Of a stretch of DNA of 64,000 bases, positions 18,429 to 49,421 are shown in pieces. Position 1 is the stretch's first letter. Every line of letters begins with the position of its first letter. The translations under genes and the position numbers were made by a program. Source of the stretch: an uncultured Acidimicrobiales bacterium (GTDB lineage Bacteria; Actinomycetota; Acidimicrobiia; Acidimicrobiales; CAWCAL01); assembly GCA_963697385.1 (NCBI GenBank), contig CAVONU010000003.1, forward strand, positions 400,133-464,132. The letters are read 5' to 3'. The notes beneath the pieces are model-generated. The model saw only the letters and a program-made list of their open reading frames with translations. It had not been told where the DNA came from and searched no databases.

Positions 18429-19349
18429 ATGCCTTGGGCGGCCGGCGACATCGTCCACCATCATGCAGGGGTGACTCGGTCGGGGCAGCCCATCATGGCG
18501 CTCGTGCGCTGCGGCGGGAGCGTCCTGCGCGAGGCGGCTGGTGCCTTTCAGGAGGACCGCTGCCGTCGGCTCGGCGCCGGCCTCGCCTACTACGCACTCT
18601 TCGCGCTGGTTCCGACCTTGCTGCTGACGGCGATGATCGCCGCCACGCTGGTCGGCCGGGAAGCGGTCGAGGGCGAGTTGGCCGACCAGCTCGACGAGTT
18701 CGTCGGCCCCGAATCGGCGGCCGCCGTCCAGGACGCGATCGCCGGACTCTGGCAGAACACCGATACATCGAGTTTCGCCCTCGTCAGCATCCTGGTGGTG
18801 GTGTATTCATCGTCGATCCTGTTCGTGGCATGGAGAGACACCCTCGAGATCGTGTGGGACGTGCCGTACGAGGCCGATCTCTTCATCTCTCTGCGGTCCC
18901 GGGCGTTCGGTGCGCTCGTGCCGATCACCGCCGGCCTCCTCCTGGCCGCGGTCCTGATCCTCGAGGTCGTCGTCGGGTTCATCCAGGAGCTGGTCGATTC
19001 GGCACTGCTCGACACGACGCTCCAGGCGGCGGGGTCCCTGCTTCCCGGGGCGGCGGCGTTCCTGGCCCTCGGTCTCCTCTACCGCCACTCGGCACGCTCC
19101 CGCCGACCCGACTGGCGAGACGTGTGGCCCGCGACCGTCGTATCGACCCTTCTGCTCGCGATGGCCTCCTGGGGATTCGGGGTGTACCTGAACGTCGTGG
19201 GGAGCACCAGCGTCTCCGGTGCGGCCAGCAGTGTCGTCGTCGCCCTGGTGGTCGTCTACTACGGAGCGCAGATCGTCCTCTACGGAGCCGAGATCATCAA
19301 GATCCTGTCCGAGCGCCGCGATCCGGCGCAGGATGATCCGACTACCTGA
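18429..19349 (+). CDS. YihY/BrkB-family membrane protein
   Basis: 'FQEDRCRRLGAGLAYYALFALVPTLLL' and the C-terminal 'VVYYGAQIVLYGAEI' are family hallmarks. Only the last ~300 aa of the 641-aa ORF are credible. Start is ATG 18429 or 18495. Confidence 0.85.
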   Translation: MPWAAGDIVHHHAGVTRSGQPIMALVRCGGSVLREAAGAFQEDRCRRLGAGLAYYALFALVPTLLLTAMIAATLVGREAVEGELADQLDEFVGPESAAAVQDAIAGLWQNTDTSSFALVSILVVVYSSSILFVAWRDTLEIVWDVPYEADLFISLRSRAFGALVPITAGLLLAAVLILEVVVGFIQELVDSALLDTTLQAAGSLLPGAAAFLALGLLYRHSARSRRPDWRDVWPATVVSTLLLAMASWGFGVYLNVVGSTSVSGAASSVVVALVVVYYGAQIVLYGAEIIKILSERRDPAQDDPTT

Positions 19350-20352
19350 CACCGCCCGGCGTCGGATCCACTCCGGGCAGGCTGCCGATCTCGAGCCCGG
19401 CGAGGTTCGACGTGCCCTCGAAGAGCACCCGCCCGCGTTCGCGCACGGTGCAGTGGAGCCGGCCGGCGAGGTGCTCGAAGTCGGTGTCGACGTTGCGCCG
19501 CTCGGCTGGGAGGGGCACGGGAAGCACGTGGGGCTCGAGGCCGGCCCCGTCCCCCTCCAGATCGATCCGGTAGCGCAGGGAGCGTGCCTGCAGCGACCAT
19601 CGACCGGGCGAGACGTCGGATCGCACCGGCGTCGGCGGGGTGAGACGGATCACGCGGTCGTCGATGCGGACGACGATGCCGGACACCAGGCGGGCGATCG
19701 GCCCCAACGAGAGCAGCCCACCGGAGAAGGCCACCGACACGTCGGCGCCGTCGAAATCGTGCGCCTGACCCCACCACCATCGATCCGGGAAGCCCGCACC
19801 CCAGTTCCGTTCGCAGTAGAGCGTGGCGCGATCGAAGGACCATCGATCGGCTTCGTGCGTGACGGTTCCGCTCGCCGATCCACCCAAGCGGTACGGATGC
19901 CAGTACTGATTGAGGAACGGCACGGACGAGAACACGCCACCGCCACCCAGGGCCCGGGGCCAGCGATACGGATCGGCGAAGGACAGGTCGAGGTGCAGAT
20001 CGTCCAGGTCGACCCGGAGCCGCTCGGGCGTTGCCGCGAAGCGGGCGTCGTCGGTCGGTCCGGCCACGAGGTCGAACCGGGTCCGGTCGGCGTGCGCCGC
20101 GTCCAACGCGGCCGCTCGCACCACGCCGCCCGGGTGCAGCGCCACGGCGACCGTCGCCCAGTCCCCGGCCGGGTGCCGATTGACGCCGCACAGCGCGACC
20201 ATCACCCGGTCGTGCGCTGCGTCGGTCGCCCGCCAGAACCACCCCTCCATCTCGGTGCCGTGCGAGGGGACCGGATCACCGAACGGTACGTCGGCACCGG
20301 TCCGCCGAAAGGCGCGGAGTGCAGCGGCGGCGAGCCCTCCGGCGATCGTCAG
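19342..20352 (-). CDS. tocopherol-cyclase-like family protein
   Basis: 'SHGTEMEGWFWR' matches the (F/M)EGWYFR box and 'LYCERNWGAGFPDRWWWGQA' matches the EKNWGxxFPxxWxWxQ box of VTE1-type tocopherol cyclases. The start is uncertain: CTG 20352 (CTGA overlap with the upstream stop), ATG 20250, or GTG 20418. GTG 20418 would add an Arg-rich plus hydrophobic N-terminus. Confidence 0.7.
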   Translation of the reverse strand: MTIAGGLAAAALRAFRRTGADVPFGDPVPSHGTEMEGWFWRATDAAHDRVMVALCGVNRHPAGDWATVAVALHPGGVVRAAALDAAHADRTRFDLVAGPTDDARFAATPERLRVDLDDLHLDLSFADPYRWPRALGGGGVFSSVPFLNQYWHPYRLGGSASGTVTHEADRWSFDRATLYCERNWGAGFPDRWWWGQAHDFDGADVSVAFSGGLLSLGPIARLVSGIVVRIDDRVIRLTPPTPVRSDVSPGRWSLQARSLRYRIDLEGDGAGLEPHVLPVPLPAERRNVDTDFEHLAGRLHCTVRERGRVLFEGTSNLAGLEIGSLPGVDPTPGGVR

Positions 20353-22490
20353 CCCCCGAATCCATTGGGCGTGCCCTCGACGTTGGTGTCGGGAACGACG
20401 GCGACGCTCGAGAAGCACATCTCGTCGACGGTGCCCTCGTTCCAGGTGATGTACCGGGGCTCGGGCATGGTGAGGTTCGCCCGGTCCCAGGTGCACTCGA
20501 ATCGCAGCGTGTCGCCCGGTTCGATCCGAATCTTCTCGGTGGGCACGTAGTACAGCTGCCACTCGAAGCTCCACGACGGGATGTCCAGCAGAACGCGCTC
20601 GTCGGGAGTGTCCGGATTGAGCGTCATCCGGTACGCCGCACCGAACTCGTGCATGTGGCCCAGGACCGAATGCAGCGTGCCGAAGTCCGCCGCGGGGAGA
20701 TCGCAGGAGCTCGAGAACTGCGTCCCGTCGAGGTCGTCGTAGTCATCGACCCCGCCGCCACACCGACGAATGAGGGCGTCCGGGATGAACCGGGCGCTGC
20801 CGCCGTACTTCTCCGCGATGTCGTTGAGCACCGCGTCGCGGTCGCACAGCGGGCCGGACTCCTCGGGGGTGCAGGGGCCTTCGGCCGGAGTGAGGTAGCT
20901 GCGGCCACGGATGTGGGTCATGGGTTCGTCGCGGTCGGCCAGCTCACCACCGCTCAAGGTATCGAAGACCAGCACCGACTGATCCGGGGGCGTCTCCTCG
21001 TCGAAGTGGTAGTGGACCTGGTTGACGATGAAGTCGCCCGGCTCCAGGTACAGCCCTACCCCCTCGGGGTAGACCCGGGGCTGCTGGCCCGGTGCCCACC
21101 CACCGATCGAACGCACCCCGTCGGTCTCCAGATTGGAGAGGCCGAAGCAGGACCAGCCGGGGCGCCCGTCGGCGCCGTCGAGGCGGTCGGCCTCCTCGCG
21201 GCCTGCGGCCGGCACGCGGTAGATGATCGAGTGGTGCACCACCTCGTCCTGGTCCGGCTCGAACGCGATGCCGGTGACCCACTCGCCGTCGCCTTCAGGA
21301 TCGTCGATCTCGTGAACCAGGCATCGGTAGTCGTCCTGGACGGCCAGATCACCGACGTACACGCCACGGGCCGGAACGACCTGGTCGCGATCGATGTCGT
21401 CGAAGGGCGGATCGTCGGCAACCAGCTGCGTCGACGGCTCGACGTCGAGGCCTCCACCCCCGTCGGCCCAGGCGCCGATCGTTTCGATCTGGTCGTCGGT
21501 CAGTGAGAAGTCGTGCTCGAAGGCCGGGCTCAGGTCGGATGCTGGCCACGGCGGCATGTACCGGGCCGCGGTGACGAGGGCGATGTCCTCGGCGATCTCG
21601 GCCGCCTTCCCGGCCGTGTCGAGCTCGACGGTCGACCAGCCGGGTCCGCCCTCGGTGTGACAGGACACACAGCCGGACTCGAGGATGGGCTGGACCGATG
21701 CGGCGAATCGGCCTTCGCCCACCCCGGGGTCGGCGGCTGCGGTCCGCAGCACGTTCTCGTCGGGCGGGCTGATATCGCCGGCCGCTCGACCGGCCACGAG
21801 CGAGAGATCGAACCGAACCTCGTCGTCGGTATGGGCCAACCCGGCAACGTGGATGGGTCCGATGTCGTAGGTGGACATCAGGATCGTGCCGGTCATGTCG
21901 GCCCGCAACGTGTCGGCGTCGACCGACACCGGGCCGGTGAAGGTCACCGGTGCGGTGGTCTCCTTGATGGTGAGATCACCGTGGATGGTCAGTGCTCCAC
22001 TGGCCTCGGCACCGATCGCGGTGGGGATGCCGTCCACCTCGGTGGCCTCGAACGTGGCGAAGGGATGGTGCGTGGATTCGAGGAAGTCGTGGCGGATCCG
22101 CTTGTCGCGCAGGGCCGAGTCGGACTCGAACATCTCGACGTTGATGACGATGGTGCCGATCCGGCTCGCCTCGGGCTCGGCGAGACTCACGGCGATGTCC
22201 CCGGCCAGCACACTGCTGGTGCCGGTCGCGGTCCCCGTTCGACCGGCGAGAGACTCCTCGACGTGGTAGGTCAGCTCGGAGCCACCGCCAGGGGTGATCC
22301 GATAGAGGGCCTCGGTGGATGCGTCGAGATCCTCGATGGTGGGAGCGACGGCGCCGGTCGTGTGGGCGTGATCGTCCTCCAGGAGCCAGTGCCACTGTTC
22401 CTGGGTGGCCGCCGCCACGCCGACGACGCCGACGAGGAAGACGACAACGATCACCGCTCGGTGCTGGAACAGGCGCCGCAGGCGCGTCAT
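20349..22490 (-). CDS. exported tri-domain fusion: YceI-like lipid-binding domain + c-type cytochrome (CxxCH) + PHM/DBH-like type-II copper monooxygenase
   Basis: N-terminal anchor 'RAVIVVVFLVGVVGVAAA'. YceI block 'LYRITPGGGSELTYHVEE...SALRDKRIRHDFLESTHHPFATFEATEV...GDLTIKETTAPVTF'. Haem motif 'QPILESGCVSCHTEGG...ARYMPPWP'. Copper-ligand pattern 'VVHHSIIY', 'NQVHYHF', 'LGHMHEFG', 'VDEMCF'. Start is ATG 22490 (MTRLRRLF) or ATG 22544. Confidence 0.75.
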   Translation of the reverse strand: MTRLRRLFQHRAVIVVVFLVGVVGVAAATQEQWHWLLEDDHAHTTGAVAPTIEDLDASTEALYRITPGGGSELTYHVEESLAGRTGTATGTSSVLAGDIAVSLAEPEASRIGTIVINVEMFESDSALRDKRIRHDFLESTHHPFATFEATEVDGIPTAIGAEASGALTIHGDLTIKETTAPVTFTGPVSVDADTLRADMTGTILMSTYDIGPIHVAGLAHTDDEVRFDLSLVAGRAAGDISPPDENVLRTAAADPGVGEGRFAASVQPILESGCVSCHTEGGPGWSTVELDTAGKAAEIAEDIALVTAARYMPPWPASDLSPAFEHDFSLTDDQIETIGAWADGGGGLDVEPSTQLVADDPPFDDIDRDQVVPARGVYVGDLAVQDDYRCLVHEIDDPEGDGEWVTGIAFEPDQDEVVHHSIIYRVPAAGREEADRLDGADGRPGWSCFGLSNLETDGVRSIGGWAPGQQPRVYPEGVGLYLEPGDFIVNQVHYHFDEETPPDQSVLVFDTLSGGELADRDEPMTHIRGRSYLTPAEGPCTPEESGPLCDRDAVLNDIAEKYGGSARFIPDALIRRCGGGVDDYDDLDGTQFSSSCDLPAADFGTLHSVLGHMHEFGAAYRMTLNPDTPDERVLLDIPSWSFEWQLYYVPTEKIRIEPGDTLRFECTWDRANLTMPEPRYITWNEGTVDEMCFSSVAVVPDTNVEGTPNGFGG

Positions 22491-22553
22491 ACCGTCTCCC
22501 CTGGACGAGGCCGCCTGCCTGACGACTCCCCCATCTGGCGCCAATCGTACAGG

Positions 22554-23402
22554 TCAGCCCTTCACCGCACCGGTGGTCAGGCCGCGGATGATCTGTTTCT
22601 GGAACAGGATCAGCAGCAGGAGGATGGGCAGCGCGGCGATCAGCGCCGCCGCGACGCCGACATTGAACCGCTCCGGGTTCTGCACCGTGATGCTCCGCAG
22701 CGTCACCTGCACGGTCTCCCAACTCTCCCTGGTGGTGACCGCGCGGGGCCATAGGTACTGGTTCCATGCCGTCAACGCTGCGATCAGCGTGAACGATCCG
22801 ATGATGGCGCGGTTCATCGGGATGGCGATCCGCCAGAGGAATCCGGCGTGCCCGTAGCCGTCCAGTTTCGCCGCCTCGCGAAGGTCCGACGGCATGCCCA
22901 TGAACCCCTGCCGGATCAGGAAGATCCCGAACGCCGATGCGACGAACGGAGCGCTGAGGCCGGCGATCGAGTCGAGCCAGCTCAGCTCGCGGATCGTGCG
23001 GACGTTGGCGACGAGGGTCACCTCGATCGGGAGGAGCAACGATGCGATGACCACGACGAAGAGCACGTTCTTGAACGGGTAGCGGAGGAACGCGAACGAG
23101 TACGCGGCCAGCACCGAGGTGACGAGCTGGGCCACCGTGATCGCCACCGTCACCGCCAGGGTCAGCAGCATGGAGCGACCCAGATCACCGTCGCTCCAGG
23201 CGGTGCCGAAGACCTCCCGGTCGATCGCAACCGGGTACAGGGGTTGGCCCTCCTCGATGTAGAGGAACGGGTCCGAGATCGCCCGTACGATCGTCATCCA
23301 GATCGGGAAAAGCACGAGCAGCGACAGCGCCGAGAGGAAGACGTACCACCCGATCTGGGTGTGACTCGTGAATCGGCGGGATCCCTTGGCGTCAGTCGCC
23401 AT
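22554..23402 (-). CDS. carbohydrate-type ABC transporter permease (MalG/UgpE-like)
   Basis: Six TM segments. EAA loop 'LREAAKLDGYGHAGFLWRIAIP'. Overlaps the upstream permease by 11 nt. Confidence 0.9.
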   Translation of the reverse strand: MATDAKGSRRFTSHTQIGWYVFLSALSLLVLFPIWMTIVRAISDPFLYIEEGQPLYPVAIDREVFGTAWSDGDLGRSMLLTLAVTVAITVAQLVTSVLAAYSFAFLRYPFKNVLFVVVIASLLLPIEVTLVANVRTIRELSWLDSIAGLSAPFVASAFGIFLIRQGFMGMPSDLREAAKLDGYGHAGFLWRIAIPMNRAIIGSFTLIAALTAWNQYLWPRAVTTRESWETVQVTLRSITVQNPERFNVGVAAALIAALPILLLLILFQKQIIRGLTTGAVKG

Positions 23403-24255
23403 AGTGCACCTTGCGGTTCAGCAGCGTGAGCTGGATCATCGTCACGACGAACGTCAGAGCGAAGAGGCCGAGGGACATGGCGGCGCCGTCGCTGATCGAG
23501 CCCGGATCCTGGCGGTTGAAGATCTTGTACACGAGTGTCTCGGTGCTCTGGGCCGGACCACCCTGGGTGAGGATCTCCATCGGGGCGAACGCCTGGAAGC
23601 CCATGATGACCAGGACCACGGTCAGAAAGGCCAACGTGGGCGAGATGAGGGGGATCGTCACCCGCCACAGCCGCCGCACCGGTCCGAATCCGTCGAGCGT
23701 GGCCGCCTCGTTGAGTTCCTCGGGCACCGCCTGGAGCGCAGCCAGCACGAGGATGAACGACAGGCCGATGTTCTGCCAGATGGACGTGAGCGCGACGCCG
23801 CGGAGCGCACTCTCGGACCGCCCGAGGTCGATGAAGTCGACCTGGCCGAAGATCCCGATCTTCGGGTTGACCAGACCGAAGAACACGACCGACGCGACCG
23901 CCGTTGAGGTGGCCACCGTGGAGCTGAAGATCATCTGGAACGCCTTGATCCCACGCAGCCGGCGATGCGCCGCCACGGCCAGGAGCAGCCCGAGGAAGAG
24001 ACCGAGGGGAACGGTGTAGAGCAGGTACCGGACCGTGATCGACAGGCCCTCGCCGAACTCGTCCCCGGTCAGCACGTCGGTGATGTGGGACGGGCCCACG
24101 TACACCTCGCCCGTGCCGAAGCGGTTGGGTCGGTTCAGCGACAGATCGACCAGCCGGTACAACGGGTAGTACGCGAACGCCGCAAGCCCGGCGAGCGCCG
24201 GCAGGAGCAGCGCGTACCCGAGCGCCGCCTCGCGCCACGACCCGTGGTCGTCCAT
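23392..24255 (-). CDS. carbohydrate-type ABC transporter permease (MalF/UgpA-like)
   Basis: 'ALGYALLLPALAGLAAFAYYPL' N-terminus and EAA loop 'LNEAATLDGFGPVRRLWRVTIP'. ATG at 24255 (MDDHGSW). Confidence 0.9.
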   Translation of the reverse strand: MDDHGSWREAALGYALLLPALAGLAAFAYYPLYRLVDLSLNRPNRFGTGEVYVGPSHITDVLTGDEFGEGLSITVRYLLYTVPLGLFLGLLLAVAAHRRLRGIKAFQMIFSSTVATSTAVASVVFFGLVNPKIGIFGQVDFIDLGRSESALRGVALTSIWQNIGLSFILVLAALQAVPEELNEAATLDGFGPVRRLWRVTIPLISPTLAFLTVVLVIMGFQAFAPMEILTQGGPAQSTETLVYKIFNRQDPGSISDGAAMSLGLFALTFVVTMIQLTLLNRKVHYGD

Positions 24256-24406
24256 CCCGGCCGTTGCCCCATCGCTGCCGACGCGCCTCACACGCCGACC
24301 CTACCTCCCGGACCGCGAGCCGTATCGGTGTCGTCGCCGGCGTCGGTGGCTCCGAGCTCCCCGATCCATCTGCCCCGCCACGCCCGACGCCTGCCAGACT
24401 GCACCC

Positions 24407-25993
24407 ATGCAGGTCTTCGACGGTGTCCAGCAGCCCGGCCAGGTGTGGCACAACCTTCCCACTCCGGCGCTCTACGAACATGCGGTCCGCCGCCACGAGG
24501 CGATGATCTCCCACCTCGGCCCCATGGTGGTGCGCACCGGGCAGTACACGGGTCGCTCCCCCAACGACAAGTGGGTGGTCGAGGAACCGGGGAGCAGGGA
24601 CGAGGTCTGGTGGGGCGACGTCAACCAGGCGATGTCGGAGGAGACCTACGACCACCTCCGCGCCCGCCTGATGGCCTACCTCCAGCAGCGGGACCTCTAC
24701 GTCCAGGACTGCTACTCCGGAGCTGACGAGCGGCACCGGCTCAACGTCCGGATCGTGACCGAGCGGGCGTGGCACAGCCTGTTCATCCGCAACATGTTCA
24801 TCCAGGAGCTGGACCCCGAGAAGCTGGCCGCGTTCGAGCCCGACTTCACCGTGATCGACGCCCCGGGGTTCAACGCCGTCCCCGAGGTTGACGGCACGCG
24901 CAGCGAGGTCTTCGTCGCGCTCAACCTGGCCCGCAAGGAGGTGATCATCGGCGGCACCGAATACGCCGGCGAGATGAAGAAGTCGATGTTCACCGTGATG
25001 AACTACCTCCTGCCGAAGGAGGGCATCATGGCGATGCACTGCTCGGCCAACCACGCACCTGGCGATCCCGACGAGTGCGCCATCTTCTTCGGCCTGTCCG
25101 GAACCGGGAAGACCACCCTGTCGGCCGACCCCAAGCGCACGCTGATCGGCGACGACGAGCACGGGTGGGGCGACACGGGCGTCTTCAACTTCGAGGGCGG
25201 GTGCTACGCCAAGGTCATCAAGTTGAGCCCCACCGGCGAGCCCGAGATCCACGAGACCACGCGGCGGTTCGGCACCATCCTCGAGAACGTGGCGATCGAC
25301 CCGGCCACCCGTCACATCGATCTGAACAGCGACGAATACACCGAGAACACCCGGGCCAGCTACCCGCTCTCGCACATCCCCAACGCGTCGAAGACCCGCA
25401 TGGGCGGTCACGCCAAAGTCGTGATCATGCTCACCGCGGACGCGTTCGGCGTGCTCCCACCCATCGCTCGGCTCACGACCGAGCAGGCGATGTACCACTT
25501 CATCTCGGGGTACACGGCCAAGGTGGCCGGGACCGAACGGGGCATCACCGAACCGCAGGCGACGTTCAGCGCGTGCTTCGGAGCACCCTTCATGGTCCAC
25601 CCGCCCGGGGTCTACGCCGAGCTCCTGGCATCCAAGATCGAGGAGCACGACTCGAAGGTGTACCTCATCAACACCGGGTGGACCGGCGGTCCCCACGGTG
25701 TCGGCCAGCGCATCGATCTGGCCCACACCCGGTCCATGGTCGACGCCGCGCTCAACGACGACTTCGACGGCGTCGAGTTCCGGGCCGACCCCGTCTTCGG
25801 GCTGGCGGTGCCCACCAGCGTCGCCGGCGTTCCCGACGGCGTCCTCGACCCACGCTCCACCTGGCCCGACGGCGACGCCTACGATGCCCAGGCGTCCCAG
25901 CTGGCGAGCATGTTCGTGGCGAACTTCGAGAAGTTCGCCGACTCGGCCTCCTCCGAGGTCAAGGCGGCGGGTCCGAGACCGACCAGCGGCTGA
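24407..25993 (+). CDS. pckA: phosphoenolpyruvate carboxykinase (ATP)
   Basis: 'VRTGQYTGRSPNDKWVV', P-loop 'FFGLSGTGKTTLSADP', 'IGDDEHGW', 'YHFISGYTAKVAGTE'. 528 aa. Confidence 0.95.
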   Translation: MQVFDGVQQPGQVWHNLPTPALYEHAVRRHEAMISHLGPMVVRTGQYTGRSPNDKWVVEEPGSRDEVWWGDVNQAMSEETYDHLRARLMAYLQQRDLYVQDCYSGADERHRLNVRIVTERAWHSLFIRNMFIQELDPEKLAAFEPDFTVIDAPGFNAVPEVDGTRSEVFVALNLARKEVIIGGTEYAGEMKKSMFTVMNYLLPKEGIMAMHCSANHAPGDPDECAIFFGLSGTGKTTLSADPKRTLIGDDEHGWGDTGVFNFEGGCYAKVIKLSPTGEPEIHETTRRFGTILENVAIDPATRHIDLNSDEYTENTRASYPLSHIPNASKTRMGGHAKVVIMLTADAFGVLPPIARLTTEQAMYHFISGYTAKVAGTERGITEPQATFSACFGAPFMVHPPGVYAELLASKIEEHDSKVYLINTGWTGGPHGVGQRIDLAHTRSMVDAALNDDFDGVEFRADPVFGLAVPTSVAGVPDGVLDPRSTWPDGDAYDAQASQLASMFVANFEKFADSASSEVKAAGPRPTSG

Positions 25994-47585: not shown

Positions 47586-49175
47586 TCATCGCCAGCCCTC
47601 CCCGGTCCAGGTCGCGCCCGTCCAGGTCGCACCGGTCCAGGTCGCACCGGTCCAGGTCGCACCGGTCCAGGTCGCACCGGTCCAGGTCGCACCGGTCCAG
47701 GTCGCACCGGTCCAGGTCGCACCGGTCCAGGTCGCACCGGTCCAGGTCGCACCGGTCCAGGTCGCGCCGGTCCAGGTCGCACCCGTCCACGTCGCACCGG
47801 ACCATCCGCCGCCGGTCCAGGTGGCTCCGGACGGCAGGACGATGCCCGTGCCGGGTCCACCGGCGGCCGGGAACTTCTGCTCGGACCGCTTGATGTCCTT
47901 CCGGGAGCCGGCGGTGTTGCCTTGGAGGAGGCCGTTGCCGTCCCGCACCGCGGGCGTCCAGATGTCGGCGGCGGTCCGGGTCATCGCGGCTTTCAACTCG
48001 TCCGGCGTGAGCTTGGGGTACGCCTCCAGGATCAGCGCCGCCACACCTGACGTGACGGCCGCCGACTGGCTGGTGCCGGACCCGAGGAACAGATCGTCGC
48101 CGTAGCGCGCGTTGGGGGCCTCGACGTCGACCGTCGAACCGGGCACCCGGTACGAGGCGATCGACCGGCCGGAGGCGATCAGGTCCGGATTGCGACTGCC
48201 GTCACCCTGCGCCGACCAGGCGGGGACGCTTCCGAGGCCCGTACCGCTCACGACCGGTCGGAGGGTCGGCCGTTCGGTGGTGAGGAGGTCGGTGGAGTTG
48301 AGGTCGACGGTCTCCTCGGTCTTCGTCGGAGCCGCGACGTCATCGGCGGTGGTCATGAGATCGGTCGGCGCCGCGGTGAGCACCTCGGCGTAGCGATCGT
48401 GGGCGCCGACGGCCATCACATAGGGGTCGATCGCGGGTGAGTCCAGATACTTCTGGGTCTCCCCTCGGTTGCCGGCGGCGACGACGACGAAGATGCCGGC
48501 GTCCCAGGCCCGCTCGACGGCAGCCGAGAGATAGTCACCGACGTGGTTGCTCACGCCTTCCTGGCCCAACGAGAGGTTGAGCACCTTGATGTTGAGCCCG
48601 TCGCTGTTGCGGTGCTCGATCACCCAGTCGATCGCGGCGATCACCTGGGGAACGGTGGTGGCACCGTCGTGACCGGCGGTCTTCAGACTGACGACGCGAG
48701 CACCGGTGGCGATGCCCTCGTGACCCGCTCGCTCGCCGGCGATGATCCCGGCCATGTGCGTGCCGTGCCCGTAGGTGTCGAGGAAGGCCGCTTCGGGGAC
48801 CGAGGCCTCGAAGGAGAGGTCCGGACCGTGCAGCACCTTGTCCCGCCCGTCGAGACCGTCGACCGGCGCGACGCCGGTGTCGATGAGGGCGACGTCGACG
48901 CCGGAGCCGTCGACCTTCCCGTCGCCGTAGTAGCCCTCCACCACCTTGCGAACCTCCTCGAGGGTCATCGGCCGGCTCGTGCCCGCCGTGTCGAGCATCT
49001 CGACCATGGCCGTGCCGACCTCGCCGACGGGCGCGTCGGTGCCGGCGGCCCCTTGGGCGCCGCCCGTCGACGCCATCGAGGCGGCGAAGAGTCCGATCAT
49101 GCCGACCAGGAGAGCGATCGCTCTCAGGCGCCTGTCTCCGGTCGCTGCGGTGGTGGTGGGTTCGATGGGTCGCAT
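47586..49175 (-). CDS. secreted S8 (subtilisin-family) serine peptidase with C-terminal (GATWT)n pentapeptide tandem repeat
   Basis: Signal-like N-terminus 'RRLRAIALLVGMIGLFAASMAS'. Catalytic boxes 'VALIDTGV' (Asp), 'HGTHMAGIIAG' (His), 'GTSQSAAVTSGVAAL' (Ser). The last ~80 aa are 15 pentads of GATWT. Confidence 0.9.
   Translation of the reverse strand: MRPIEPTTTAATGDRRLRAIALLVGMIGLFAASMASTGGAQGAAGTDAPVGEVGTAMVEMLDTAGTSRPMTLEEVRKVVEGYYGDGKVDGSGVDVALIDTGVAPVDGLDGRDKVLHGPDLSFEASVPEAAFLDTYGHGTHMAGIIAGERAGHEGIATGARVVSLKTAGHDGATTVPQVIAAIDWVIEHRNSDGLNIKVLNLSLGQEGVSNHVGDYLSAAVERAWDAGIFVVVAAGNRGETQKYLDSPAIDPYVMAVGAHDRYAEVLTAAPTDLMTTADDVAAPTKTEETVDLNSTDLLTTERPTLRPVVSGTGLGSVPAWSAQGDGSRNPDLIASGRSIASYRVPGSTVDVEAPNARYGDDLFLGSGTSQSAAVTSGVAALILEAYPKLTPDELKAAMTRTAADIWTPAVRDGNGLLQGNTAGSRKDIKRSEQKFPAAGGPGTGIVLPSGATWTGGGWSGATWTGATWTGATWTGATWTGATWTGATWTGATWTGATWTGATWTGATWTGATWTGATWTGATWTGEGWR
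47604..47828. repeat. 15-bp tandem repeat, 15 units (GGTCCAGGTCGCACC on + strand)
   Basis: Units start at 47604 and recur every 15 bp. Eight consecutive units (47634..47753) are identical. The first 13 units differ at only 5 positions. Units 14-15 are degenerate. Confidence 0.95.
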
Positions 49176-49421
49176 CCGATGCCTTCCCTGCCGGAGGATC
49201 GACCGCGGGTCGGTCGCTCCGGAATCTGGGGGACGTCGGTTTCGCCACTGACTCTCCGGTCGGTCAGGCGACCACGTACAACCGACCGGATCTTCGTCTC
49301 GTCCACTTCTGGTGTTGGAGTCGACTACGGCGCGAATCGCGCCCGGATTGAGGCCCCCGGGAGCTTCCACCCATGAGGATGGTCCGGTTGCACCAGACCC
49401 GGATCGAGGCCGTGGCGCGAC

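Follow-up and report, generated by a model that had tools for sequence, protein, structure and literature searches.

A predicted membrane-anchored copper monooxygenase of Acidimicrobiia that combines YceI, haem-c and PHM/DBH-type domains in one polypeptide

We analyzed a gene on a 64,000-nucleotide stretch of DNA from an uncultured Acidimicrobiales bacterium (assembly GCA_963697385.1, contig CAVONU010000003.1, positions 400,133 to 464,132). This whole stretch is called the window below, and coordinates refer to it. The gene, located at 20349..22490 on the minus strand, encodes a protein of 713 amino acids (aa), in which a signal-anchor helix, a YceI barrel, a haem-c domain with a CxxCH motif, and a two-domain copper monooxygenase of the type found in peptidylglycine alpha-hydroxylating monooxygenase (PHM) and dopamine beta-hydroxylase (DBH) follow one another. 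Judged from sequence and structural model, it is probably a membrane-anchored copper monooxygenase of the non-coupled binuclear kind, belonging to the PHM/DBH class, which would have an electron-delivery chain of its own in place of ascorbate. PHM and DBH are textbook enzymes that have been studied almost entirely in animals, in which enzymes of this type make amidated hormones and noradrenaline. How electrons enter the electron-accepting copper site (CuH) and cross about 11 Å to the O2-activating, catalytic site (CuM) is a long-running mechanistic question.

The gene and its domains

The segment 20349..22490 (-) is a single gene of 713 codons plus a TGA stop codon. The maximal open reading frame (ORF) is 20349..22544 (-) and reaches a TTG at 22544. 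The start codon is the ATG at 22490, which matches the N-termini of the orthologues and is preceded by a Shine-Dalgarno-like sequence, read directly from the DNA; the gene boundaries of the initial annotation are thus retained. The G+C content at third codon positions of this frame is 0.87, and the genome has 69% G+C. A frameshift or a two-gene artefact is excluded by more than 100 uninterrupted full-length orthologues with 52-95% identity and by 151 genome loci, so that the initial reading as one polypeptide stands. Long, seemingly conserved antisense ORFs at 20319..21506 (+) were rejected as genes. They are high-GC shadow ORFs of the coding region, and one of them (L015:6271-6729 and equivalents) forms the recurring 'cluster 1' in 58 related loci. 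Neither a terminator nor a sigma-70 consensus was found by promoter and terminator scans between the gene and its neighbours, and no RNA element was detected near the gene. The gene and its parts are the following:

20349..22490, minus strand: whole gene, stop codon TGA at 20349..20351
22495..22501, minus strand: Shine-Dalgarno-like GGGGAGA, 4 nt (22491..22494) before the ATG
22407..22460, minus strand: N-terminal signal-anchor or transmembrane helix, aa 11-28 (hydrophobic stretch, predicted helix)
21786..22316, minus strand: YceI-like eight-stranded lipid-binding barrel, aa 59-235 (Pfam PF04264, Foldseek)
21720..21785, minus strand: flexible linker between the YceI and haem domains, aa 236-257 (pLDDT about 50 in the model)
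21456..21719, minus strand: mono-haem c-type cytochrome domain, aa 258-345 (invariant motifs, sub-threshold profile match)
21657..21671, minus strand: CVSCH haem-attachment motif, aa 274-278 (invariant in 119 orthologues)
21546..21557, minus strand: MPPW (YMPPW) with the presumed distal ligand M312 (invariant in 119 orthologues)
20955..21398, minus strand: CuH (electron-accepting) jelly-roll domain, aa 365-512 (ligands, Foldseek, profile alignment)
21231..21236, minus strand: CuH ligands H419/H420, aligned to PHM H107/H108 (VHHM)
21006..21020, minus strand: QVHYH, aa 491-495, with the third CuH ligand H493, aligned to PHM H172 (QVHY)
20721..20954, minus strand: insertion specific to the family, about 78 aa long, separating the copper domains, aa 513-590 (two helices, absent from PHM)
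20391..20720, minus strand: CuM (O2-activating, catalytic) jelly-roll domain, aa 591-700 (ligands, Foldseek, profile alignment)
20649..20657, minus strand: CuM ligands H612/H614 in HMH, aa 612-614, aligned to PHM H242/H244 (HTH)
20415..20426, minus strand: DEMC, aa 689-692, with the CuM ligand M691, aligned to PHM M314 (DEMC)

An AlphaFold model of the full protein has a mean predicted local distance difference test (pLDDT) score of 86.7 and a predicted template modelling score (pTM) of 0.75. The catalytic core covers the C-terminal half. All copper motifs listed in the initial annotation are present (HH at 419-420, QVHYH at 491-495, HMH at 612-614 and DEMC at 689-692). A profile of 61 diverse relatives retrieved PHM (E=2e-12) and DBH (4e-11) from the PDB, and its alignment with PHM matches the ligands of both copper sites residue for residue (profile/PHM: vHHvil/VHHMLLF, QvHYn/QVHYG, gHmHelG/VHTHHLG and sDEMC/SDEMC). 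Among 119 orthologues and the 61 diverse relatives, the six copper ligands show no or almost no variation. The second histidine of the HYH motif, H495, is conserved in the orthologues only and is replaced by Asn in the wider consensus, and therefore H493 is assigned as the third CuH ligand. In the same alignment the residue adjacent to this ligand, Q491, is the equivalent of PHM Q170. Two of the PHM disulfides, C81/C126 and C293/C315, have equivalents in C390/C448 and C666/C692, respectively, which are invariant in the orthologues. No counterparts of the other three disulfides of PHM are apparent, and the protein has four additional family-specific cysteines. With the model as query, Foldseek matched human DBH (4zel, E 6e-14) and over 25 entries for PHM (1e-12 to 1e-9), with target-normalised template modelling (TM) scores for DBH and PHM of 0.5-0.64 and sequence identities of only 12-16%. 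Because ligands, fold and disulfides are all in agreement, the catalytic core belongs to the PHM/DBH superfamily (PF01082 + PF03712), of which it represents a deeply divergent bacterial branch.

The three residues that bind peptidylglycine in PHM, R240/N316/Y318, are replaced by L610/F693/S695, and the consensus of the wider family is also hydrophobic at these positions (Leu/Leu-type). Since the triad is absent, the protein is not a PHM orthologue in specificity, and a PHM-like peptide specificity was rejected on this ground. A catalytic-domain signature that includes W640, F642, Q645, D669 and W683 as well as the hydrophobic replacements of the PHM substrate residues is common to family members with and without a YceI domain. 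The insertion between the copper domains is conserved across the bacterial superfamily and contains the invariant residues C540, C549 and C577, with the invariant C596 just after it. It may form a lid over the inter-domain cleft or a docking surface for the haem domain.

The haem-c domain precedes the CuH domain. The chance expectation for a CxxCH motif in this protein is 0.004, and a sub-threshold cytochrome c match recurs in 26 of 27 orthologues checked with profile hidden Markov models (HMMs). The family profile weakly matched cytochrome c chains of the PDB (E 2e-3 to 6e-3). M312 of the YMPPW motif is presumed from the sequence to be the axial ligand of the haem. The initial annotation had placed the CxxCH motif in the context of Planctomycete-type cytochromes. 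While the haem-attachment motif was borne out by its invariance, the PSCyt label found no support, because no PSCyt model matched the protein at E<=1 or any of the 27 orthologues at E<=0.01. In the model the haem-c domain is fused directly to the CuH domain, without a flexible linker; the pLDDT values at this junction are 70-92, compared to about 50 in the linkers flanking the YceI domain.

The YceI domain was identified with high significance by Pfam (PF04264, E=5.5e-19, 69.5 bits versus a cut-off of 23.7, aa 71-233), and the match is present in 27 of 27 orthologues. The barrel contains the canonical YceI motif SxLRDKRxRxDFL. Foldseek found the YceI-family structures 1wub, 7bwl, 1y0g, 5ixh and 3hpe, with E values between 1e-9 and 3e-8, and the X158 domain of Saccharophagus (2x32) at E 1.5e-6, and the target-normalised TM scores of these six structures are 0.65-0.80. 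Therefore, as initially proposed, the protein contains a bona fide YceI domain. The linker in front of the barrel, aa 31-58, is of low confidence (pLDDT about 50 at residues 31-40), and the same is true for the linker behind it (about 50 at residues 241-260); from the model, the YceI domain would be an accessory module on two flexible tethers. The anchor helix (aa 11-28, RAVIVVVFLVGVVGVAAA) is hydrophobic, is preceded by a basic N-terminus, is helical in the model, and is followed by a conserved Q-W-x-W motif with an invariant W33. It corresponds to the membrane anchor or signal of the initial annotation. The signal anchor and the haem c agree with the extracytoplasmic location suggested there, and the protein is predicted to be membrane-anchored at the outer face of the cytoplasmic membrane.

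Orthologues, bacterial relatives and gene neighbourhoods

A protein search yielded 518 homologues. The best 120 of them are mostly of full length (about 700 aa), and in public records the annotation of the orthologues goes no further than 'YceI family protein'. When one genome per GTDB species was scanned, at least 151 encoding loci emerged, and the best 80 of the 151 are all from Acidimicrobiia-type metagenome-assembled genomes. Full-length orthologues are essentially confined to the Acidimicrobiia and are widely conserved there.

An exhaustive search with the catalytic half alone revealed a much larger family: 3,904 cluster representatives (clustered at 50% identity) matched with E<=1e-3, of which 1,630 reached E<=1e-10. 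Among the representatives that span the catalytic region in full, the best 111 have the following architectures:

67 of 111: one CxxCH domain and the copper core
20 of 111: long YceI-type N-terminus, CxxCH and the copper core
1 of 111: two CxxCH motifs and the copper core
23 of 111: copper core without an upstream CxxCH

A CxxCH motif is thus found upstream of the catalytic region in 88 of the 111 representatives, at a spacing of 55-72 residues in 86 of these 88 and of exactly 66 residues, the mode, in 43. From this tally and the near-fixed spacing of about 66 residues it follows that cytochrome c and the copper core form an evolutionary unit, to which the YceI domain was added in one branch. 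The short forms, which lack YceI, have a signal or lipoprotein sequence and a linker of low complexity at their start. Where a source is named, it is Acidimicrobiales or Actinomycetota, and the annotation is mostly 'hypothetical protein'. Forms with the copper core only number in the thousands, and their best label is 'monooxygenase'. A recent survey still presents PHM enzymes as a family that is widespread in eukaryotes (PMC8812541). In the literature library searched, we found no study of the present architecture or of a PHM/DBH family member from bacteria; there was also no NCBIfam model for the catalytic half, and no bacterial member of the copper family in the PDB by Foldseek or profile search. 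The initial annotation knew of no characterized example either. It appears that the architecture is present in public databases, where it is hidden by the label 'YceI family protein', and that no member has been studied.

The neighbourhoods of the orthologues were surveyed by clustering 1,965 flanking ORFs and by Pfam searches with the recurrent clusters, and 73 orthologue loci were counted for genes of cytochrome c maturation (ccm). At about 30 of these 73 loci, ccmC, ccmE, ccmF, a gene for a TlpA/CcmG-like thioredoxin, ccmH and a gene for a CcmI-like tetratricopeptide repeat (TPR) protein are followed by the orthologue on the same strand, and the TPR gene is directly upstream of the orthologue in 18 of the approximately 30 cases. 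The orthologue is the last same-strand gene after the System I cytochrome c maturation operon of these Acidimicrobiia. Most Actinobacteria use System II, and thus the presence of System I is notable. This linkage is the only functionally meaningful gene association, and it supports the view that the CxxCH motif is a real haem-attachment site. The second recurrent arrangement was observed at 18 loci, mostly labelled Aldehydirespirator or Aldehydirespiratoraceae, where a membrane-bound molybdopterin oxidoreductase and RCC1-repeat proteins are encoded around the orthologue. The two groups comprise the following loci:

Loci with ccm genes (upstream of position ~10000): L015, L018, L020-L027, L030, L032, L034-L036, L038, L040, L041, L046, L049, L051, L055, L056, L059, L062, L064, L069, L073-L075
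Loci with molybdopterin oxidoreductase and RCC1-repeat genes: L043, L048, L053, L054, L058, L060, L061, L063, L065-L067, L070, L072, L076-L080

At the 18 loci of the second group, one to several RCC1-repeat lipoproteins of about 600 aa flank the orthologue, multiple acyl-CoA dehydrogenase genes are nearby, and the gene before the orthologue encodes a protein in which an N-terminal membrane domain of several helices is joined to a molybdopterin domain of the sulfite oxidase type. This fusion is possibly MsrQ/MsrP-like. The remaining loci, including the clade of the window, have idiosyncratic contexts, and the other recurrent clusters are uninformative (acyl-CoA dehydrogenase, ROK, DUF3179, Crp and histidine kinase). 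The window contains neither a ccm gene nor another CxxCH-bearing gene, and two YceI-less paralogues (P0339 and P0297) are stand-alone genes in unrelated neighbourhoods. The neighbours of the gene in the window are:

22554..24291, minus strand: a pair of ABC permease genes (BPD_transp_1), ending 63 bp upstream of the gene
24407..25993, plus strand: pckA, divergent neighbour of the ABC permease genes
19342..20574, minus strand: tocopherol-cyclase-family ORF (PF14249, 82.9 bits, E 3e-23), which abuts or overlaps the stop of the gene

The two permease genes, which have no adjacent gene for a solute-binding protein or an ATPase, may be co-transcribed with the gene. The start of the tocopherol-cyclase-family ORF may overlap with the gene, as no canonical start codon is present between the stop codon of the gene and the conserved PSHG...EGWFWR motif of this ORF. 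The neighbours were compared by tblastn with 80 orthologue loci including 10-kb flanks. The tocopherol-cyclase-family ORF was found at only one of them, L001, the locus of the closest, 89%-identical relative, and was rejected as a conserved partner. The ABC permeases, pckA, an LLM oxidoreductase, YihY and a Pat-like gene are likewise common only to L001. The arrangement in the window is therefore of genus level and not a conserved partnership.

Two further observations were made in the window. The segment 14550..17390 (+) encodes a 946-aa fusion of a GNAT acetyltransferase and an ADP-forming acyl-CoA synthetase (CoA_binding, Succ_CoA_lig, ATP-grasp_5), which is the architecture of the protein lysine acetyltransferase Pat. 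A c-di-GMP-II riboswitch (Rfam RF01786, 56.9 bits, E 5.9e-10) is located at 49225..49310 (-), upstream of the ORF 47586..49370 (-), and has no relation to the gene described here.

Proposed electron supply of the copper sites

The predicted protein shares several features with PHM, DBH and tyramine beta-monooxygenase (PF01082 + PF03712), namely the two jelly-roll domains with a CuH site (His-His...His) and a CuM site (His-x-His...Met), a Gln before the third CuH ligand, the two disulfides mentioned above, and a location outside the cytoplasm, which corresponds to the lumen in the case of the eukaryotic enzymes. It differs from them in being bacterial, in the insertion with its extra cysteines, and in the lack of the peptidylglycine-binding triad. 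In addition, DBH has an N-terminal, beta-rich, ligand-binding DOMON domain at the position where the bacterial protein has YceI. A further difference concerns the reductant: the eukaryotic enzymes use soluble ascorbate, which in secretory vesicles is recharged via cytochrome b561, whereas a haem-c domain is covalently fused to the copper domains of the bacterial protein.

The haem c would donate single electrons to CuH instead of ascorbate, and the electrons would pass from there to CuM, where O2 would be activated and a C-H bond of a substrate other than peptidylglycine hydroxylated, as in PHM and DBH. That the fused cytochrome c could be a built-in electron donor to the copper enzyme had been suggested in the initial annotation, and this proposal is now well supported by sequence and model. 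Three arguments speak for it: cytochrome and copper domains, paired at a near-fixed spacing, make up the conserved core throughout the bacterial superfamily, cytochrome and CuH domain are joined in the model without a flexible linker, and the orthologues often follow a ccm operon. An analogy is provided by three-domain NirK, a periplasmic copper nitrite reductase with a fused C-terminal cytochrome c as donor. However, NirK has a cupredoxin fold, reduces nitrite and does not contain a lipid-binding module.

Possible role of the YceI domain and implications

The closest parallel to the pairing of YceI with cytochrome c is found in Cellvibrio japonicus. In the protein Cbp2D, a YceI-like X158 domain that binds ubiquinone-8 is accompanied by c-type cytochrome domains, and copper-dependent lytic polysaccharide monooxygenases (LPMOs) are reduced by the X183 domain of this protein (PMC8981238). 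Its physiological role is still unsettled (PMC12542752). Cbp2D, Cbp2E and related proteins of Saccharophagus and Teredinibacter (X158 plus X183 or X132), which have been proposed as electron donors to LPMOs, have in common with the protein described here an extracytoplasmic YceI-like barrel and a mono-haem cytochrome c that are tied to a copper monooxygenase. In their case, another protein, with an unrelated fold, serves as the monooxygenase (an AA10 LPMO with mononuclear histidine-brace copper), while the monooxygenase of the Acidimicrobiia is of the binuclear PHM/DBH type and fused in cis. Furthermore, these proteins carry CBM2 and FN3 modules, whereas Pfam found no CBM or FN3 match in our protein, and the neighbour clusters that recur at the 80 loci included no CAZyme or LPMO gene. 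The YceI domain is not closer to X158 in the Foldseek search than to other YceI proteins. From its domain composition and gene neighbourhoods, the protein would work like the Cbp2D group but is not a member of it. Stand-alone YceI proteins (Escherichia coli YceI, 1y0g; Thermus thermophilus TT1927b, 1wub; Pseudomonas aeruginosa PA0423, 7bwl; Burkholderia cenocepacia BcnA, 5ixh; Helicobacter pylori HP1286, 3hpe) have the same barrel, the same RD-x-(H/R)-x-x-x-DF motif and a periplasmic or extracytoplasmic location, but they are single domains of about 170-190 aa and not one module of a 713-aa predicted redox enzyme.

By analogy, we prefer, if only tentatively and at somewhat short of an even chance, that YceI is a quinol-binding site of electron entry and not a module for substrate presentation. 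The barrel would load a prenylquinol of the membrane, menaquinol in these actinobacteria, and the electrons would run from the quinol via haem c and CuH to CuM; the order of the polypeptide, i.e., anchor, YceI, haem, CuH and CuM, mirrors this path, which favours the proposal. It is also favoured by the Cbp2D precedent and by the superfamily, since its variable N-terminal modules are all redox modules or are absent and the catalytic signature is unchanged. In E. coli, the partner gene of yceI is yceJ, which encodes a cytochrome b561. Mycobacteria and corynebacteria are not known to have a soluble cytochrome c, so a direct link to the quinol pool would be useful. The full version of this scheme, in which the protein would be the first PHM/DBH member coupled to the respiratory chain, with a tethered YceI domain that extracts menaquinol and passes its electrons through the fused haem c into CuH and CuM, is possible but doubtful.

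Several results weigh against this scheme or against the assignments on which it is built. Profile searches recovered only a part of the three-domain composition initially proposed: the YceI model passed its cut-off, whereas both copper halves (Cu2_monooxygen N half 22.8 versus 30 bits, C half 18.9 versus 23 bits) and the cytochrome c model (Cytochrome_CBB3, 21.4 bits versus 27) stayed below their gathering scores on the protein itself. However, relatives with 33-40% identity pass the copper cut-offs, with 39.2 bits for Cu2_monooxygen and 38-48 bits (maximum 47.9) for Cu2_monoox_C. The gathering score is a limit set for the model and no trait of the family. The haem domain modelled in isolation reached a pLDDT of only 59.7 and gave no significant fold match. 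We know of no YceI protein that has been shown to be redox-active, and the PDB descriptions of its solved relatives name polyisoprenoids, fatty amides or antibiotics as ligands. Paralogues from the same bacterial class that have no YceI are evidently supplied with electrons in another way. The flank survey revealed no conserved neighbour from a substrate pathway or from lipid metabolism and thus gave no clue to the substrate. Finally, the role of the X158 domain of Cbp2D is itself unproven (PMC12542752).

The alternative that survives best is the presentation of a substrate. The initial annotation had proposed that YceI presents an isoprenoid lipid to the enzyme. In a wider form of this idea, YceI would capture an isoprenoid lipid from the membrane (a polyprenol, a quinone, a carotenoid or a hopanoid-like compound) or some other hydrophobic compound, for instance a xenobiotic or an antibiotic, and present it to CuM, and the haem c would be charged by an external donor, e.g., another cytochrome c or a bc complex. 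This would be compatible with the firm identification of the YceI domain, the solved relatives of which bind polyisoprenoids, ubiquinone-8 and hydrophobic antibiotics, and with its position near the membrane anchor on flexible tethers, where it could shuttle. The replacement of PHM R240, which binds the carboxylate, and N316 by Leu and Phe makes the CuM site more hydrophobic, and DBH likewise has a ligand-binding beta domain N-terminal of the same core. However, the relatives without YceI (67 with cytochrome c and copper core and 23 with the copper core only, out of 111) keep the catalytic residues, including the hydrophobic replacements, so the active site seems not to be specialized for a ligand delivered by YceI, and the choice of substrate is not obviously YceI-dependent. 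The tocopherol-cyclase-family gene, which would act on prenylquinols and abuts the gene here and in the closest relative, is absent from 79 of 80 related loci; since the neighbours in the window recur only in L001, this adjacency was rejected as support for a prenyl lipid. A conserved neighbour gene of lipid metabolism is also lacking. Isoprenoid presentation is unproven and not favoured, and we regard the wider form as viable but rather unlikely.

Still less probable is that the protein is not a hydroxylase but a copper and haem redox protein with a respiratory or protective role, for example a cytochrome-c-dependent reductase of O2, superoxide or peroxide that serves as an electron sink, or a protein for copper handling in cytochrome biogenesis. 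It is true that the sole conserved linkages are with ccm genes and, in another clade, with the membrane-bound molybdopterin oxidoreductase, that no substrate-pathway genes are linked, and that PHM-type sites can reduce O2 uncoupled from a substrate. However, the ccm linkage is expected for any haem-c protein, and both copper sites, Q491, the disulfides and the aromatic residues of the CuM region (W640, F642 and W683) are fully conserved across thousands of relatives, which indicates a substrate pocket and catalysis. Least probable is an extracellular modification of peptides or proteins as by PHM (alpha-hydroxylation of a C-terminal glycine) or a beta-hydroxylation of amines as by DBH and tyramine beta-monooxygenase, with YceI as a mere membrane or lipid tether, because, although PHM and DBH are the closest solved structures and sequences and also act outside the cytoplasm, in secretory compartments, the binding triad is replaced in the protein and in the family consensus, the identity to both enzymes is low, and no conserved neighbour encodes a precursor peptide, a PAL-like lyase or an enzyme of an amine pathway.

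The results reveal a large, uncharacterized bacterial branch of the PHM/DBH superfamily, in most close members of which a haem-c domain is hard-wired to CuH. Forms with a fused haem would be independent of ascorbate, and their electron input could be triggered and tracked spectroscopically via the haem, which would make them attractive models. The label 'YceI family protein' covers only a quarter of the protein and hides a probable oxygenase across the Acidimicrobiia, which are abundant in oceans, soils and wastewater. The fusion also provides a concrete, testable hypothesis for the YceI family, the role of which has been vague for twenty years, and its pairing of YceI with cytochrome c independently echoes the pairing proposed to feed LPMOs. 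If the menaquinol proposal were true, docking of quinol and electron entry would be the first defined biochemical job for a YceI domain, and cytochrome c, not ascorbate, would drive a large bacterial branch of the neuro-endocrine copper monooxygenases regarded as 'animal' enzymes. The protein is thus an experimentally tractable lead both into a bacterial branch with a hard-wired electron donor and into the function of YceI.

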